Shown here: piece after piece, positions 3,100 through 62,729 of the stretch
Layout of the letters: each line of letters opens with the position of its first letter
Position numbering within the stretch: the stretch's first letter is position 1
Source: Candidatus Omnitrophota bacterium
GTDB taxonomy: Bacteria > Omnitrophota > Gorgyraeia > Gygaellales > Profunditerraquicolaceae
NCBI GenBank assembly: GCA_023247825.1
Contig: JAHFFR010000001.1
Span: 23,009-87,008, forward strand
Direction of reading: 5' to 3'
Length of the DNA stretch: 64,000 bases
The notes under the pieces: generated by a model
Databases searched by the model: none
The model's input: the letters and a program-made list of their open reading frames with translations, nothing else
Told to the model about the DNA's origin: nothing
Position numbers and translations under genes: made by a program

Positions 3100-3414
3100 T
3101 TAATACGCTTTAACCGTCTCTCTTATTCCTTCCTCCATGGTAAAAGGCGGTTTCCAGCCCAATAAATTGTGGATTTTACTGCTATCAACAAGCAGAGTCC
3201 CTGTTAATTTTTCCACCTCTTCGCCCTTGCCTGCAATCTTACACAGCACCTTTAGAATGCCAGGATGTAAAGAAAATAGAAACGCCTTCTTCTTCATTGC
3301 AGAAGCGATCATCCTTATCAAATCTGGAGTAGAAATATCCTGCCCATCACTTACTAAGAAAGTCTCCCCTGCCGCTTTTGGGTGCTGGACGCAAGTTATA
3401 ATAGCATCAACCAA
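3100..3414 (-). pseudogene. Duplicated 3' fragment of the NAD-dependent epimerase gene at 4800..5738 (orphan C-terminal 104 codons)
   Basis: The nucleotide sequence 3112..3414 is identical to 4812..5114. The translation VDAIITCVQHPKAAGETFLV... matches the C-terminus of the 312-aa epimerase except for the last three residues. Confidence 0.7.
3112..3414. repeat. Left copy of a 303-bp perfect direct repeat
   Basis: Identical to 4812..5114 by direct comparison. Identity breaks at 3111/4811 and at 3415/5115. Confidence 0.85.
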
Positions 3415-7048: not shown

Positions 7049-8419
7049 CTACCCTTTTAAATTACTGTGCCAGCTTATTCTGCAGTATTGCCAAGTTACA
7101 AATACCAGAGGAATTATTATAATGTTTACAATCAAATATCCCATGGCGACCCCGGCAGCTGAATAATATTTTCCCAGAATAATTGTTAACCCTCCGATAA
7201 GCGCTCCTGCCATAACCGATAAGAATACGAGTGGTTCTTTTTTATGCGCACGCAAATATCCTGACGCGGGAAGCGATACGCTTACAATAATCTGCGCCAA
7301 TAAAAAAATAGCTACCGTTAATGGTGGTAGAAACCTTACGGCAAATTTACTATGAAAATTATATAGCAAAAAAATACCAAACCAAATCGATAAACCTAAA
7401 ATTACAGAAACAATTAAAACAACCCTTGTCATCTTAAAGAATAGCTTATCCAGTGTTTCGTAATCTTTCTTAGCGATAAGCATTCCGAATCTAGGAATTT
7501 TTGGCGCAAGCCAGGCACTCGATATCCAAATAACAATCCCTACCAAATTCCATGTCATTCCCATTTGCCCTGCGACGACTGACCCGTGGAATTTGAATAA
7601 TACCGGCGTAAATAACGAAAAAACAAAATATCCACCAACCCAAGAGACAGCTATCCTCCATTGCATTGGGAAGATATCCTTATACCATTTAATCCGCGGC
7701 CCTTTCGCATTAAGAAAAAACAGGCTTCTGAAAAAATACCAATATTTGTATTTTATGAAGAATAGGCCGCACGCCAGAAACATTATACTTGAAACAGAAA
7801 GCGCAAAAAGCCCTGCCCCGGATAAGATTGCAATCCAAATAGATAAGTTTACCAGTAATCCTTGCCAAAACTTAAAAAAATATAATTCTGCAAGTTGATT
7901 GCACCCTTCCAGCAGCGACCATATCGGGGCCAGGCAAAGATTTATACCAGTTAAAAAACATAAGCTAAACCATGGAAATACCCAACTGATACCGGATTTT
8001 TGTGATTCTAAAAAGAATACATACCCGCCTATTCCTAAAAAAAGAATTAGGAAGGCCGCGCCGACTGCATACCATCTTAAAGACAACCGTGCTAAACTAC
8101 CCAGCCTTGACAGCGCTTCTTCACTGCCCGCTATAAAACCTTTTTCTGTAATACTAAGGCGCGACCATTCATGGCTTGCAAATTGAATGATTACAACTCC
8201 AAGGCCTAGCTCCACAAAAACCTGTAGCGCAAGAAGCGTGCTGAAGGTATAGTAATACCCCTGTAATTCAGGCGAAAATTTGATAATGATAAGTATAATC
8301 GTAATGGGGCCTGTGATGATCAACCATGCTTTCGATAAGATACTAAAAAATGCGGGCCGATCAACTTCAATCTTCCGCAAATTATTCTTAATAAAATTTC
8401 TCGCCTCGGATATTTTCAT
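7049..8419 (-). CDS. Polytopic membrane protein, Wzx-like (MOP/polysaccharide biosynthesis flippase family) candidate
   Basis: 456 aa with about 12 predicted TM helices and a Wzx-like N-terminal region (IIIKFSPELQGYYYTFSTLLALQVFVELGLG). Confidence 0.55.
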   Translation of the reverse strand: MKISEARNFIKNNLRKIEVDRPAFFSILSKAWLIITGPITIILIIIKFSPELQGYYYTFSTLLALQVFVELGLGVVIIQFASHEWSRLSITEKGFIAGSEEALSRLGSLARLSLRWYAVGAAFLILFLGIGGYVFFLESQKSGISWVFPWFSLCFLTGINLCLAPIWSLLEGCNQLAELYFFKFWQGLLVNLSIWIAILSGAGLFALSVSSIMFLACGLFFIKYKYWYFFRSLFFLNAKGPRIKWYKDIFPMQWRIAVSWVGGYFVFSLFTPVLFKFHGSVVAGQMGMTWNLVGIVIWISSAWLAPKIPRFGMLIAKKDYETLDKLFFKMTRVVLIVSVILGLSIWFGIFLLYNFHSKFAVRFLPPLTVAIFLLAQIIVSVSLPASGYLRAHKKEPLVFLSVMAGALIGGLTIILGKYYSAAGVAMGYLIVNIIIIPLVFVTWQYCRISWHSNLKG

Positions 8420-58263: not shown

Positions 58264-58408
58264 CTAAACTCCGCTTTGCACCAACACAAGTAACATTACT
58301 TTGCTAGAAAATATTGTTAACTTTTTACCCTAACTCCTGCTATTCTACCGCTAAACCAATTACGCCTGCGCCTATAATCAAAATGTCAATTTTTCCATTA
58401 GTTTAGAT

Positions 58409-58439
58409 CGGGGACAGTCCCAAAAAACGGGACAGTCCC
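58409..58439. repeat. REP-like element copy A: GGGGACAGTCCC-AAAAAAC-GGGACAGTCCCC (two 11-13-bp hairpins)
   Basis: Each unit GGGAC-A-GTCCC is a self-complementary hairpin. Copy B is near-identical, down to the 3' flank TCTATT. Confidence 0.8.
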
Positions 58440-58441
58440 CT

Positions 58442-58660
58442 CTATTCGCCACCAATAGACGGCACCTGGAGTAAAACTGAAATTCTGTAGATTCTCGGAG
58501 AGAATAAGATACACCCGAACCCTATGGCACAAATTAATAGGAATACTCCAAAAAAAGTATTTTTGCGTTTAGCAAATAATTTGAAACACTGATACAGATC
58601 TATTTCCGCCTCCTCAAAATTGAACTGAGTTATTTGATCCATGCTACTGGCACCTCTCAA
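58442..58660 (-). pseudogene. Orphan N-terminal fragment (~70 aa) of a Wzz/GumC-type chain-length-determinant protein
   Basis: EIDLYQCFKLFAKRKNTFFGVFLLICAIGFGCILFSPRIYRISVLLQV has the typical Wzz N-terminal TM pattern. The ORF ends at REP copy A and has no downstream continuation. Confidence 0.45.
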
Positions 58661-58915
58661 TTTGCTGCCTACTTATTACTATCATTGATCTTGCCTAAAG
58701 AGATAGCCAGCTTCGTAGAAAGCTCCCGCTGCGTAACAGCAGGCTGAGACTCTATCTCTTTGATAATAATGAGGTTCTCTTCCTTTAAGGAGGATTGTTC
58801 AGGCATTGAACAGATATTTTAACTCGTTAGATAAGAAAGTCAAGTTCTTTAAGGGGATTTTTTTGGATTTAAATAGAAAAGGTGAGGCTTCTAGTTATTT
58901 AGGACGAGATCCCTG

Positions 58916-58946
58916 CACTGAGCGAAGCGAATGTGCTCAGGATGAC
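58916..58946. repeat. Partial inverted copy (29/31 nt identical) of the left arm of the 46192 MITE-like element
   Basis: cactgagcgaagcgaatgtgctcaggatgac matches the reverse complement of 46192..46222 (cactgagcgaaacgaatgtgctcagaatgac). Confidence 0.6.
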
Positions 58947-58982
58947 GATGAAATTCAGGATTCCCCCCCCAGAATAAGTATA

Positions 58983-59459
58983 TTACTCAAGTAACCGCGC
59001 AAAAGTCTTTGATTCAAGGAAATTAACTTCACCTGGCTCTTCAAGAAACCGGCTGACATCATTTCTAACTTTTGCCCAATCTAATCCCTCGGCAACTTTT
59101 CTAATTTCTGATTTCCAGTTTTGCGAATCAATCTTAACTGGCTCTTGCGATGTCTGAGCCATAGCGTTATTGAGCATAATATAATTCGGCTCTAGTTCTT
59201 TAAATTTTGTCAAATACCACAATAAATCATACCAATCCCTTCCCTTAGTATACTTGCGGCACAGAAGTGCATGCACTTTACCTGCAAGTAAAGAAGCTAA
59301 ATCATAATGAAGGACATAGAACATAGATGTTGAATTATACACATCGCTAACCTCCAAACCCCCCTGAGGCGGCTTGGAGTCAATCTCCACTTTGATAAAA
59401 ATCTTTTGTGTTTTTAACGGGCTTAAACCTGTTTCAAAAAGGATGTCGGAGAATGTCAA
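58983..59459 (-). pseudogene. N-terminally truncated AbiEii/AbiGii-family (DUF1814) nucleotidyltransferase toxin, C-terminal ~55% only
   Basis: VHALLCRKYTKGRDWYDLLWYL matches the family C-terminal signature. The N-terminal NTase motif is absent. REP copy B lies immediately upstream. Confidence 0.55.
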
Positions 59460-59474
59460 GGAAAACTTGATGTC

Positions 59475-59505
59475 GGGGACAGTCCCAAAAGGCGGGACAG
59501 TCCCC
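59475..59505. repeat. REP-like element copy B: GGGGACAGTCCC-AAAAGGC-GGGACAGTCCCC
   Basis: Lies between the ORF6N stop and the start of the AbiEii fragment. Confidence 0.8.
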
Positions 59506-59506
59506 T

Positions 59507-59890
59507 CTATTTCCCAGCTACAAGCAATTTTTTAATCGCCTCAAATATAACCTGAATGTCCGTTTCGTGTAATTGATATTTTCGCTCTAATTCTTCAAGT
59601 TTCTCTGCCAGCTCTTTATGTGTTAATAACAACTCACGTAATTTAACGAATGCCCGCATGATGGTAATGTTTACCCAAATGGCCTGCTTAGATTTAAGTA
59701 CACTAGAAAGCATTGCTACGCCTTGTTCTGTAAAGACATACGGCAAGTGCCTTCTTCCTCCCCAACTTGATATTCCTTTTTGGAATATCAAGTTTTTGCA
59801 CTCTTTTTTAGTTAACTGAAACATAAAATCTTCCGGGAAACGATCAATATTCCGTAATTTCTTAAAAAGGAATGGTAATTCCGGCTTCAA
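59507..59890 (-). CDS. ORF6N-domain protein, N-terminally truncated
   Basis: [21 protein letters not shown]...[27 protein letters not shown]...MRAFVKLRE is the canonical ORF6N core. The usual ~35 N-terminal residues are missing. The start overlaps the upstream gene. Confidence 0.6.
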
Positions 59891-60605
59891 TCCCCTGTTG
59901 GCCTTTACGGGATTTTAGCCTTATAAATGCTTCGGCGTCAAGATGTTCCAGGAATTTATGCGTCATGGTAAGGCTGATGCCTAAAGGATGGCCAAGCTCA
60001 TTCCTAAGCGCGAAAATAACTTTATTTCGGCCAAAGGTTACCTCTGCCCCAAATTCCATTGCCCTGATATTCCCCTGGCCATAATCTATCTGAAAATTTA
60101 GCCCTAAATTACGGCCAAACTTCCATTCTCCATATAGAATAAGTAGTTGGCTGGATGCGGCCAAGCGGCTTTGACGCATGCCTACGCCGATACGGTAGCG
60201 GATCTGGCCTTTTTTAGGATAAAGCGTGGGCGATTCAAGTTGGACCTTGAATTCAAAGCGGGAGGTTGAGCTGGCTTCAAAGATATAGACTAGCCGATCC
60301 TCTGAAGGCAATTGCCAATACCCTCTGAAGGTTAATGTGTCACGCCCATCTTCGGATGTATATTCAATCTGCTGATTTTTGTTTAACTTCCAGCTTCCCT
60401 TAAAGGTATAAGTTTGAGGCGGGCCTTTGCGCAAAGCAACCTCAAAGACAAGCTCATTGTATTCATTGGCGCGCCAGGTGCCTTTAAGTTTAAGTATGCG
60501 CAGGCGCTGGCGGTTGGTTTTGGATTCAGTCTGGATGGTTTCGATTACGAGAGAGCCGGATTCAGCGGCGATAAAACGCTTGCGGATATTATCGGTTGGC
60601 TTCAT
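59862..60605 (-). CDS. Hypothetical beta-rich protein, no recognisable family
   Basis: 247 aa. No signal peptide or TM helix. Locally higher GC content. Translationally coupled (17-bp overlap) to the epimerase gene upstream. Confidence 0.35.
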
Positions 60606-61638
60606 AGATCTGCTTAATCATTTCTTCTATGCCGTATTTATAATTCCAGGATGGGTAGTGCGATTTGAATTTGGAGACGTCGCTGATCCACCAGATATGG
60701 TCGCCGATGCGGTTAGAATCAATATAATCATATTCAAATTCCTCGCCCGTCAGCCCCTCGCACAGCTCAATCGCCTCAAGGATGGAAACATTGGCAAACC
60801 TGCCTCCGCCAATATTGTAAACTTCGCCGCAGCGGGGTGCCTGGAAATAATGGTAAAAGGCATTGACCAGGTCGAAAGAATGGATGTTATCCCTGACCTG
60901 TTTGCCTTTATACCCGTAAATCTTATATTTGTATTTTCTTACCGCGCATTTTACCAGGTATGATAAAAATCCGTGAAGCTCTGCCCCGGAATGCGCAGGG
61001 CCGGTCAGGCATCCGCCGCGGAAAATTCCCGTGCGCAGATGGAAATACTTTCCATATTCCTGCACCATGATATCCGCCGCAACTTTTGAGGCGCCGAAAA
61101 CCGAATGCAGGCAATTATCAATGCTCATTGACTCATCAATTCCTTTGAAATACTTGTGGCCATCTGAAATCTCAAAACGTTTTTCTTTTTCAATCAAAGG
61201 AAGCCGGTTAGGAGTATCGCCATAGACTTTGTTGGTAGAGGTAAAAATAAAGACCGCGCGGGGAGAGAATTTACGCAGGGCCTCAAGCATAACAAGGGTT
61301 CCGTCGGCATTGACCCCGAAATCAACCGCAGGATCCTTAGCCGCCCAATCATGGGACGGCTGGGCCGCGGCGTGCACAATTAAGGCGATATCTTTGTTGT
61401 ATTTTCTAAATATTGAATTTATTTTACGCTGATTGCGGATATCTACGGAATAATGGCGGTAGTTTTTATGCAGTTTCTGAAGGCGTTTTTGATTCCAAAG
61501 GATTGAGCCGTCTGCGCCAAAGAAGCTTTTGCGCATATTGTTATCAATGCCGACGATATCAAAGCCCTTTTCGGCAAAGAAACTCACGGTCTCCGAGCCA
61601 ATTAACCCGCAGGAACCTGTGACTAAAACAATGGACAT
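60589..61638 (-). CDS. NAD-dependent epimerase, CDP-paratose/tyvelose 2-epimerase-like
   Basis: [31 protein letters not shown] and NIGGG motifs. 349 aa. A strong SD (AAGGAAAAC) precedes it. Confidence 0.7.
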
Positions 61639-61651
61639 ATGTTTTCCTTTA

Positions 61652-61697
61652 AATTAGGGACAGCGGCTATTTATTTAAATAGTCGCTGTCCCTAATT
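61652..61697. repeat. Intercistronic 46-bp inverted repeat AATTAGGGACAGCG-G-CTATTTATTTAAATAG-T-CGCTGTCCCTAATT
   Basis: A near-perfect hairpin overlapping the last two codons and stop of rmlB and ending ~15 bp before the SD of the next gene. It shares the AATT-GGGACAG core with the REP copies. The T-tract on the transcribed strand is weak. Confidence 0.55.
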
Positions 61698-62729
61698 AAT
61701 ATAAAGCTTATTAATATCTTTTAACTTACTCTTAAGCCAGGCTTGATGCTTGAGCGACCAAGCTACGGTAAGCTTAAGGCCCTGCGCAAGTGAAACGCCC
61801 GGCTTCCAGCCAAGCTCTCTGGTAATTTTTCCTGAATCAAGGCTGTATCTTATATCATGGCCTAAACGGTCTTTAACAAACTCAAATCTATTCCGGCTGG
61901 CTCCAAGAGTTTTTAGTAATAATTTTACCGTATCAATATTCTTACTCTCGCAGGCGCTCCCTAAATTATACGCCTCTCCTATTTTGCCCTTGTTCATAAT
62001 TGCCAGGATGCCGGCCACGCAATCGTCAACATAAAGCCATTCGCGGACATTTAGCCCTTTGCCATAAACCGGGATTTTTCCGCCGCCTAATATTCTAAGG
62101 ATAGCAAGCGGGATCAATTTCTCAGGATACTGCCAGGGGCCGTAATTATTTGAAGGGCGGATAATTATCGCGGGAAATTTGTAAGTCCTGATATATGACT
62201 GCACTAAAAGATCGGCTGCTGCTTTAGAAGCCGCGTAAGGGCTGTTAGGCTTAATCGGAGAATTCTCGTTGAACTTGCCATTGGCAATTTCTCCGTAGAC
62301 TTCGTCTGTAGAAATAAAAATAAATTTCTTTGCATTATATTTACGGCCGGCATCGAGGAGAATTTGTGTTCCTTTAATGTTGGTTTCGATAAACGGAGTG
62401 GCGTCGTTAATGCTGCGGTCGACGTGGCTCTCAGCGGCGAAATGCACCACAATACCCGGATTTTCTTTTTTGAAAATTGAGTCAATCTTCTGCTTATCGC
62501 AAATATCAACTTGATAGAAATTGGGGACAGTCCCCTTCGGGGACAGTCCCCAATTAAGCCTCTTAAGGTCGCCGGCGTAGGTGAGGCTGTCTACTACGAT
62601 AACCTCGAAAGATTGAGATTGCTTCCCCGCCACAGAACTTTGGCGGGTCGCAATGACACGCCTCACAAATGCGCTGCCGATAAAACCCGCGCCGCCGGTA
62701 ACTAGGATTTTAGGTATTCTTTTACGCAT
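61692..62729 (-). CDS. rmlB: dTDP-glucose 4,6-dehydratase with a REP-like palindrome embedded in-frame
   Basis: ILVTGGAGFIGSAFV, SLTYAGDLKRL, PYAASK and ISTDEVYG motifs. 345 aa. Confidence 0.85.
   Translation of the reverse strand: MRKRIPKILVTGGAGFIGSAFVRRVIATRQSSVAGKQSQSFEVIVVDSLTYAGDLKRLNWGLSPKGTVPNFYQVDICDKQKIDSIFKKENPGIVVHFAAESHVDRSINDATPFIETNIKGTQILLDAGRKYNAKKFIFISTDEVYGEIANGKFNENSPIKPNSPYAASKAAADLLVQSYIRTYKFPAIIIRPSNNYGPWQYPEKLIPLAILRILGGGKIPVYGKGLNVREWLYVDDCVAGILAIMNKGKIGEAYNLGSACESKNIDTVKLLLKTLGASRNRFEFVKDRLGHDIRYSLDSGKITRELGWKPGVSLAQGLKLTVAWSLKHQAWLKSKLKDINKLYIN
62523..62551. repeat. REP-like element copy C: GGGGACAGTCCCC-TTC-GGGGACAGTCCCC, inside the rmlB coding sequence
   Basis: Lies within AATT...AATT flanks. 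On the coding strand it reads AAT TGG GGA CTG TCC CCG AAG GGG ACT GTC CCC AAT = NWGLSPKGTVPN. It replaces the variable loop between the LTYAGxLxxL and FxxxDICD segments of RmlB. Confidence 0.85.

Follow-up and report, generated by a model that had tools for sequence, protein, structure and literature searches.

Paired palindromes in a polysaccharide-synthesis cluster

The window considered here is the whole stretch of 64 kb analysed from contig JAHFFR010000001.1 of a metagenome-assembled genome (MAG) of Candidatus Omnitrophota. It is a polysaccharide-synthesis cluster with almost all long open reading frames (ORFs) on the − strand, and it contains short repeats (GGGGACAGTCCCC, arranged in pairs) that form hairpins and resemble repetitive extragenic palindromic (REP) elements. 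One of them lies in frame inside rmlB, the gene for dTDP-glucose 4,6-dehydratase (61692–62729, − strand). Coordinates are positions in the window; L-labels denote sampled genome stretches and P-labels RmlB homologues. The repeat unit, the 11-mer GGGACAGTCCC, has six exact matches, all on the + strand, that form three doublets named A, B and C (unit starts 58411/58429, 59476/59494 and 62524/62540). They are confined to 4.2 kb. Chance predicts 0.02 such units, and 0 of 100 dinucleotide-preserving shuffles gave six. No further credible copy was found elsewhere in the 64 kb, even at three mismatches. The 7-mer GGGACAG occurs 11 times against 3.2 expected, and 8 of the 11 lie within the three doublets and a variant hairpin at 61652–61697. 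The paired hairpin units at three places and the longer related hairpin, proposed in an earlier note on this DNA, are thus both confirmed.

Doublet A (58408–58446, + strand) is composed of exact units and reads TCGGGGACAGTCCC-AAAAAAC-GGGACAGTCCCC-TCTATT; an ORF ends in it at 58442. Its − strand reads AATAGAGGGGACTGTCCC..., and the TAG at 58442–58444 is the stop codon of a wzz remnant. Doublet B (59473–59511, + strand), likewise with exact units, lies between an ORF6N remnant and a 5′-truncated abiEii remnant. Its alignment with A gives 37 of 39 identical nucleotides, the common stretch being TCGGGGACAGTCCCAAAA[AA/GG]CGGGACAGTCCCCTCTATT, and this bears out the TCTATT flank that the two copies had been said to share. 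Doublet C (62519–62555, on the − strand in rmlB) reads AATTGGGGACTGTCCCC-GAA-GGGGACTGTCCCCAATT on the sense strand, where it encodes residues N59–N70 (NWGLSPKGTVPN), and AATTGGGGACAGTCCCC-TTC-GGGGACAGTCCCCAATT on the + strand. It is a 37-nt palindrome with 17-nt arms (94% complementary) and a 3-nt loop. The variant hairpin (61652–61697, − strand) has 22-nt arms that are 95% complementary and the head AATT-R-GGGACAG in common with copy C. The rmlB stop codon is part of it (AAT TAG GGACAG...), and it takes up the spacer that separates rmlB from the next gene, whose ATG is at 61638.

Each doublet as a whole forms one long hairpin, mismatched at a single central position. Across the window hairpins, RNA folding energies range from −22.6 to −28.2 kcal/mol (z from −2.8 to −8.3) and those of single-stranded DNA from −10.7 to −17.7 kcal/mol. 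As RNA, A reaches −24.8 kcal/mol (z −4.3), B −22.6 kcal/mol, the sense strand of C −28.2 kcal/mol (z −5.9) and the variant hairpin −28.0 kcal/mol (z −8.3); as single-stranded DNA, copy C reaches about −17 kcal/mol on either strand.

Filled and empty loops in RmlB

The rmlB product is a full-length protein of 345 residues (Pfam GDP_Man_Dehyd, E 4e-71; PDB 1r66, E 4e-89) whose STDEVYG and YAASK catalytic blocks are intact and conserved in the alignment. It hosts copy C, read in frame as residues 59–70, and a second palindromic insert. The closest RmlB proteins bear names that point to Candidatus Omnitrophota. Compared with empty alleles, 12 codons stand at copy C in place of 8 (EEVKGKFK), a net gain of four. 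Copy C had been described as exactly 36 nt, or 12 codons, lodged in a variable loop between conserved RmlB blocks. The 12 in-frame codons and the variable loop hold; a clean addition of 36 nt does not, the palindrome being 37 nt long and 8 codons being replaced.

An alignment of 40 Omnitrophota RmlBs (75–82% identical) and a tabulation of loop content in 115 show that the protein is rigid apart from two hypervariable spots. The first, site 1, is bounded by GFIGSAFVRLL and V(I/V)VD, and site 2, which holds copy C, by YAGDLKRL and FYK. Relatives show the site-2 loop filled or empty, the ordinary EEVKGKFKFYK being present in most of the tabulated proteins, among them many of 75–80% identity. The peptide NWGLSPKGTVPN is found there in the window, P0002 and P0003, while in nine other RmlBs the loop reads E(D/E)I(G/D)K(R/T)GLSPKGTVPFY, in another register. 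Further site-2 variants occur in P0058, P0011, P0027 and P0028, and the opposite orientation (GQSP...) in P0033 and P0005. Site 1 has KGLSPKGTVPE or decayed forms in about 40 of the 115. Altogether, G(L/Q)SPxGTVP may occupy loop 1, loop 2, both loops or neither; its register varies, both orientations occur, and there are decayed copies such as KALSLKGTVPE and KRLSPQETVSE. A neighbour-joining tree of the 115 RmlB cores is too star-like to count independent gains; the type-ii insert at site 2 is patchy on it, and the window groups with P0002 and P0003 in a single clade whose members have the site-2 insert in common but differ at site 1.

The same picture holds at the DNA level. In L121 and L122 the sense strand carries GGGACTGTCCC-C(G/A)AA(G/C)-GGGACTGTCCC at both RmlB sites, and in L208 a doublet occupies site 2 and another the rmlB stop codon, a canonical doublet (AAATAGGGACTGTCCCCGAAGGGGACTGTCCCTATTT) standing in place of the 61652–61697 hairpin. 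L121 and L122 have the doublet in other genes too, with the same 27-nt sequence as in L208, and the density in these three relatives is 2–4 doublets per 12–21 kb. A second such case is a conserved gene of 247 codons (59862–60605) with an empty site in the window (60504–60509, − strand, between Q33 and R34). At Q33/R34 its homologue in L123 is also empty; L121 has a clean 33-nt insertion of the doublet (GLSPKGTVPVS), and L122 a different hairpin.

These comparisons bear on the direction of transfer. That rmlB is the source, its loop-coding sequence having been copied to intergenic sites, was one of two possibilities raised in the earlier note, and a single point favours it: the longest and most perfect copy of the window is in rmlB. 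Against this, most related RmlBs lack the element at site 2, the same DNA occupies another loop and other genes and recurs in many phyla without this rmlB, the canonical loop of solved RmlB structures is unrelated to the insert, and copies outside rmlB have no rmlB flanking sequence. The site of the 247-codon gene, filled in a relative and empty in the window, likewise argues that the element came into rmlB. Collectively, the sequences indicate that the element entered rmlB, not the reverse, and an origin in rmlB can practically be dismissed. The other possibility, a mobile element inserted in frame and tolerated as a loop, is supported by the presence of the same DNA at two RmlB loops, in other genes and in intergenic DNA.

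How RmlB would accommodate copy C can be proposed from its fold. Alignment to solved RmlB structures (1r66 and 6bi4) places site 1 in the α1–β2 connection and site 2 in the α2–β3 connection, and the site-2 loop with the insert is only two residues longer than that of DesIV (1r66). In the Rossmann fold, helix-to-strand connections lie on the sheet edge opposite the dinucleotide site. An AlphaFold2 model based on the 40-sequence alignment is poor (mean predicted local distance difference test score, 62.6) and was taken for the order of secondary structures alone, which is as expected: strand 42–47, helix 51–62 and strand 70–73. All six frames of the element's 29-nt core are free of stop codons. 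Copy C may have entered the α2–β3 loop of the Rossmann domain by a frame-keeping event, adding a peptide rich in G, S, P, K and T that would suit a loop at the N-terminal edge of the β-sheet, away from NAD and substrate. We infer that rmlB tolerates the element owing to its lack of stop codons and its location in a helix-to-strand loop predicted to be away from the NAD site.

The second insert of RmlB (62617–62655, − strand) is unrelated to the doublet. It lies at site 1, in the α1–β2 loop, reads CATTGCGACCCGCCAAAGTTCTGTGGCGGGGAAGCAATC, encodes VIATRQSSVAGKQSQ and folds at −22.8 kcal/mol (z −2.9). Its peptide type, VIARREAPKQS (VIARR..KQS), is present at site 1 in about 20 of the 115 Omnitrophota RmlBs, and related sequences, GTCATTGCGAG...GAAGCAATCTC (peptides VIAS/CHCE/SLRG), occur in L041, L072, L084 and L149. 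Repeated colonisation of two RmlB loops, by the doublet family together with one or more other palindromic families, is unusual.

Site 1 is diverse beyond these two families. Among P0001–P0120 (window residues 24–42) at least five more recurrent peptide families occur, namely GQFSFKLRTVP, NKWDRFYFS..NRNGP, GDSSPIGSRNVP, GDCRRGGLNLPYGS and KQDRFPFKGNGP; they presumably are translations of other repeat families, and RmlB lengths range from 327 to 361 residues owing to them. At the C-termini of two RmlB homologues (alignment columns 401–433), repeat-derived peptides take the place of the last residues or extend them (CHCEPRFVCHCEPRRGEAIS in P0041, RDSSPRGLSLKRKG in P0058), which makes the 3′ end of rmlB a third place of contact with repeats of this kind.

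Spread of the doublet and its association with RAYT genes

The distribution of the doublet was examined in one genome per GTDB species (596 Gb), with 3–9 nt allowed between units. It is present in at least 120 genome stretches from many phyla, against fewer than about five expected by chance by our own estimate, even at high G+C. Hosts among the matches listed are Omnitrophota (about 15 stretches), Planctomycetota, Gaiellaceae and other Actinomycetota, Oxalobacteraceae isolates, Myxococcaceae, Aminicenantes, WOR-3, Patescibacteria and others, some MAGs having several loci each. The carriers among these matches comprise dozens of independent MAGs, isolates (Pseudoduganella and Amycolatopsis) and long-read genomes. 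Viral contigs account for just 7 stretches, and phage carriage was rejected on this ground as the cause of the spread. A search of one literature library for the 11-mer on both strands returned only unrelated eukaryotic or viral primers and no bacterial paper, and the 11-mer is not in the supplements of PMC3733652.

The breadth of this distribution also bears on the reality of copy C. The window comes from a MAG, and palindromes can give chimeric joins, so that an assembly or sequencing artefact at a short palindrome is conceivable. The reading frame is kept, and the doublet recurs in the independent assemblies, isolates and long-read genomes just named. Moreover, L124 and L125, short contigs from two independent assemblies, are identical to the window through copy C, which argues that no assembly artefact is involved. 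An artefact has next to no chance of being the explanation.

Unit spacing is variable (3–9 nt), the spacers resemble hairpin loops (TTCG, CTGC, GTTC and GAA) and complementarity between the outer flanks is frequent. Of 44 doublets in low-GC genomes, 15 are located 50 codons or more inside long ORFs; with sites near an N-terminus added, the intragenic total is about 20. Several frames are used, and some host ORFs encode giant proteins. The predominantly extragenic location expected of REPs is therefore not what the doublet displays.

Strong hairpins could be kept mainly for a function, as RNA or DNA signals such as operon-internal mRNA stabilisers, terminators or sites bound by a regulator, for example the nearby helix-turn-helix (HTH) or AbiE proteins, and not be selfish repeats. 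In favour of such a role, many copies elsewhere are flanked by an A-run and a T-run, like bidirectional terminators, the 61652–61697 hairpin lies exactly between rmlB and the next gene, and REPs are known as RNA elements (PMC3733652). Against it stand in-frame copies inside unrelated genes, at positions that differ among relatives, and the free decay of the rmlB copies in protein (KALSLKGTVPE and KRLSPQETVSE). The variable spacing argues against a fixed protein site. The window copies lack a T-run, terminator-like sites were not enriched in a terminator and promoter scan (11 against 8.2 in shuffles), and an Rfam scan of the whole window gave no match. Maintenance as a signal is accordingly very unlikely. 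An operator for the nearby HTH/AbiE proteins, an attC site, a CRISPR-like array and a DNA uptake sequence were also considered and dropped in view of the variable spacing, the coding copies and the cross-phylum spread.

A link to REP-associated tyrosine transposases (RAYTs) emerges from other genomes. In the syntenic Omnitrophota loci L122, L123 and L208 a conserved gene for a 228-residue Y1_Tnp protein lies between tyrS and rmlA, a place that corresponds to just beyond the end of the window. The best NCBIfam match of the protein is ‘REP-associated tyrosine transposase’, at 65 bits (cut-off 80). When this Omnitrophota protein was compared by tblastn with 120 motif-selected stretches, homologues were found in L086, L052, L090 and L020. 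The 8 kb of L086 contain no doublets other than those on either side of the RAYT gene, which are in inverted orientation; in L052, too, doublets flank this gene closely. From another sample, L216/L218 encode a RAYT 66% identical to the L052 protein, again with doublets on both sides. Doublets thus flank RAYT genes on both sides in three Planctomycetota genomes, and NF047646, ‘REP-associated tyrosine transposase’, is the best match of these proteins. The RAYTs of L052 and L086 are only 26% identical, yet they have the GGGGACWGTCCCC repeat in common. Beside RAYTs that are 50% identical to a doublet-flanked one (L219/L221 at 2200–2500 and 3110–3170; L222 at 2330–2400) are arrays of GAGGTCACCTC and GCACACCTCTGT, other palindromes of the same build as the doublet.

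A metagenome scan with the RAYT alignment gave 80 best loci. The inverted repeats that flank these RAYTs very often start with GGGGACAG or GGGGTCAGA. The head GGGG[AT]CAG reaches 1.64/kb in RAYT flanks against 0.10/kb elsewhere, an approximately 17-fold enrichment over the 80 metagenomic loci; it is present in 43 of 65 loci, and 24 of 65 have it inverted on the two sides. In these metagenomic loci the link is visible only through this head. The Omnitrophota RAYT gene has its own flanking repeats, GTAGACAGTTTAC upstream and GTAGACTGTCTAC downstream, which are 13-nt palindromes that also occur dispersed. Their consensus GTAGAC(A/T)GT(T/C)TAC has the GAC-W-GT centre of the doublet.

On this evidence we consider it likely that the doublets are REP-type elements, i.e. 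short, hairpin-forming and non-autonomous, that are mobilised by RAYTs and that one of them was inserted into rmlB and tolerated there. In Planctomycetota the doublet is linked to RAYT genes directly; for the window genome such a link is plausible. The copies of GGGGAC(A/T)GTCCCC doublets in that genome would have spread in trans, by a RAYT acting on the single-stranded hairpin, and RAYT mobilisation is probably how the doublet moves. As the window holds no RAYT gene, this step is inferred here.

Several observations weigh against this account. Neither a RAYT gene nor a RAYT-flank palindrome is present within the 64-kb window, and the Omnitrophota RAYT (L122, L123, L206 and L208) is flanked by a sibling palindrome, GTAGACWGTYTAC, not by the doublet. 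L123 has no doublet in 21 kb, though its RAYT is present, and none of the 80 best metagenomic RAYT loci has the exact 11-mer. The rmlB junctions replace 5–8 codons, and precise Y1 transposition predicts a clean insertion. The GTAG tag, typical of REPs linked to RAYTs, is adjacent to only 14 of 159 doublets across phyla; in the window a tag is at best degenerate (ATAG-A-GGGGAC at A and B on the − strand, TTAG-GGAC at 61652–61697) and absent at copy C. Finally, the loop argument for RmlB draws mainly on alignment and general Rossmann-fold knowledge, the structural model being poor.

Part of these observations would be accounted for if the repeats were real but had spread by other means, such as microhomology template switching, hairpin capture at breaks, gene conversion or another transposase. 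Replacement of local codons at the site-2 junctions of rmlB, the lack of a RAYT or its flank repeats in the window, the different palindrome of the Omnitrophota RAYT and the absence of the exact motif from the 80 loci all point that way. So does the new flank at site 2, which is complementary to the pre-existing one (AATT...AATT in the window, AAAAGG...CCTTTT in L122). Such complementary outer flanks could equally represent sub-families with different outer stems, and spread by these means does not account for doublets on both sides of RAYT genes in three genomes, the 17-fold enrichment of GGGG[AT]CAG in RAYT flanks or the clean 33-nt insertion in the 247-codon gene. Spread without a RAYT is therefore improbable, with rather more in its favour than a signal function, and mobilisation by RAYTs is preferred.

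It is tempting to go further and propose that a large cross-phylum branch of RAYTs recognises its repeats by GGGGAC-W-GTCCCC, or more broadly by the GGGG(A/T)CAG head, and that this determinant defines a third REP super-family. We regard this proposal as tentative and, on present evidence, rather doubtful. If true, the super-family would stand beside the GTAG- and CGTC-tagged REPs, with a core that was retained or arose anew across more than 10 phyla, and colonisation of coding sequence in Omnitrophota (a third to half of the copies) would be a regular source of loop variation, as in RmlB.

Some minor observations concern the RAYT loci. The RAYT gene and its GTAGACAGTTTACGTAAC and GTAGACTGTCTAC palindromes, together with nearby dispersed copies of these, account for L122 7188–8030 (the gene itself at 7309–7995), for L123 6557–7400, 8050 and 11080, and for L208 5880, 6711 and 7295. 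The conserved RAYT-like gene of these three stretches is single-copy, and in L123 one flank-type palindrome lies between rmlB and the next gene. Most contigs with an Omnitrophota RAYT are 0.7–3 kb long, which would fit assembly breaks at the flanking repeats. In L090 (1–6500), an Aminicenantes MAG, another repeat of similar build (GGGGACACGTACC...GGTACGTGTCCCC) translates, in many reading frames around the RAYT homologue, to recurrent GDTYLRYMSPV and RGHVPEVHVPV peptides.

Known repeat families and gene remnants beside copies A and B

REP/REPIN–RAYT systems (REPIN, REP doublet forming hairpins), reportedly described by Nunvar in 2010 and by Bertels and Rainey in 2011, are the closest relatives of the doublet. 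Like them, it is a short palindromic stem-loop repeat, with copies dispersed over the genomes sampled and often in doublets, and in Planctomycetota it flanks single-copy Y1 (RAYT) genes of the IS200-like HUH/Y1 type in inverted orientation (L086, L052 and L216). Unlike them, it has no regular GTAG or CGTC tag (14 of 159), and a third or more of its copies in low-GC genomes are intragenic. As the 13-mer unit is itself palindromic, its two copies in a doublet form a direct repeat and at the same time an inverted one, with A·A or T·T mismatched at the centre. REPs are usually lineage-specific and REP–RAYT systems are thought to be vertically inherited, whereas an identical doublet core is found in more than 10 phyla, beside RAYTs just 26% identical. 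This raises the question of why one REP core spans phyla.

Intragenic REPs have precedents. They were found inside genes of several species, most frequently in Opitutus terrae and in Rickettsia conorii, where they are the Rickettsia palindromic elements (RPEs); they usually are dimers that encode 20–30 residues and were argued to sit in loops or linkers, and degenerate REP tags exist (Di Nocera et al. 2013, PMC3733652). The doublet resembles in particular the REPs reported to encode about 10–30 residues in otherwise intact genes, which are most abundant in O. terrae, of the Planctomycetes–Verrucomicrobia–Chlamydiae (PVC) group (PMC3733652). Thus, intragenic REPs are already known in Opitutus and as RPEs, and the unusual part here is the cross-phylum identity of the core.

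RPEs are described, in what PMC3733652 cites of Ogata et al. 2000, as palindromic repeats in frame in intact genes that encode a surface-region peptide, with filled and empty sites. The doublet is similarly in frame in intact genes whose orthologues may be filled or empty. RPE-1 type elements measure about 100–150 bp; the doublet, of 27–37 nt, differs from RPEs in size, in sequence and in its Omnitrophota host. To our knowledge, no link to RAYT flanks has been shown for RPEs. Miniature inverted-repeat transposable elements (MITEs) are 70–300 bp long, have terminal inverted repeats that match an insertion sequence (IS) and are bordered by target-site duplications. The doublet is likewise non-autonomous and multi-copy and folds back, but it is one hairpin of 27–37 nt with differing flanks, and neither a parent IS nor a consistent target duplication was found. 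In view of this missing anatomy of terminal repeats and target duplication, the element is better called REP-type than MITE. Finally, intrinsic terminators also have a G+C-rich hairpin, and A and T runs often flank doublets in other genomes, but the window copies lack a T tract and one lies inside an ORF.

These repeats matter for annotation. They account for length differences of up to about 30 residues, at two fixed loops, among the Omnitrophota orthologues of a housekeeping enzyme, and odd peptides (GLSPKGTVP, VIARREAPKQS and others) that recur in unrelated environmental proteins are repeat-derived, not functional motifs. The filled, empty and decayed sites of RmlB also form, within a single enzyme, a well-documented natural series that helps in studying how proteins tolerate insertions of selfish DNA.

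Copies A and B are surrounded by degraded genes. Between 58.3 and 59.9 kb lie four remnants identified by Pfam, of wzz, an HTH_24 gene, abiEii and an ORF6N gene; intact wzz, HTH_24 and abiEii genes are present at comparable places in L123, L122 and L121. The wzz remnant (58442–58660, − strand; ORF 58445–58660) comprises 72 residues of the N-terminal part, covers positions 2–53 of the 91 of the Pfam Wzz model and aligns with residues ~4–68 of a 275-residue Wzz in L123; copy A lies exactly at its break point. The abiEii remnant (58983–59459, − strand; ORF 58986–59459) has 158 residues, lacks the N-terminal ~95 model positions (AbiEii 96–229 of 238) and starts just after copy B, and a full AbiEii of 263 residues is found in the syntenic L121. 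The partial coverage of the Pfam models confirms that A and B abut fragments of Wzz and AbiEii, as had been surmised from the letters alone. On the transcribed strand both copies read AATAGAGGGGAC, in which TAG is the stop codon of the upstream remnant (58442–58444 for wzz; 59507–59509, in the TCTATT flank, for ORF6N). Since the two copies lie at truncation junctions and their TAG ends the truncated ORFs, they mark rearrangement junctions of the polysaccharide cluster and probably caused or mediated the local rearrangement.

Three stop codons in the region are a TAG just before the repeat head on the − strand (58442–58444, 59507–59509 and 61692–61694; AATAGAGGGGAC and AATTAGGGAC), and this TAG may be a degenerate GTAG tag. 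Nearly all ORFs of at least 120 residues with a plausible product are on the − strand, and all 2-kb bins have a negative GC skew; the genes of the window seem to form a single, very long array read in one direction. Inside the ORF6N-domain remnant, at 59764–59794, lies a perfect 13-bp inverted repeat (AACTTGATATTCC and GGAATATCAAGTT, 5 nt apart).

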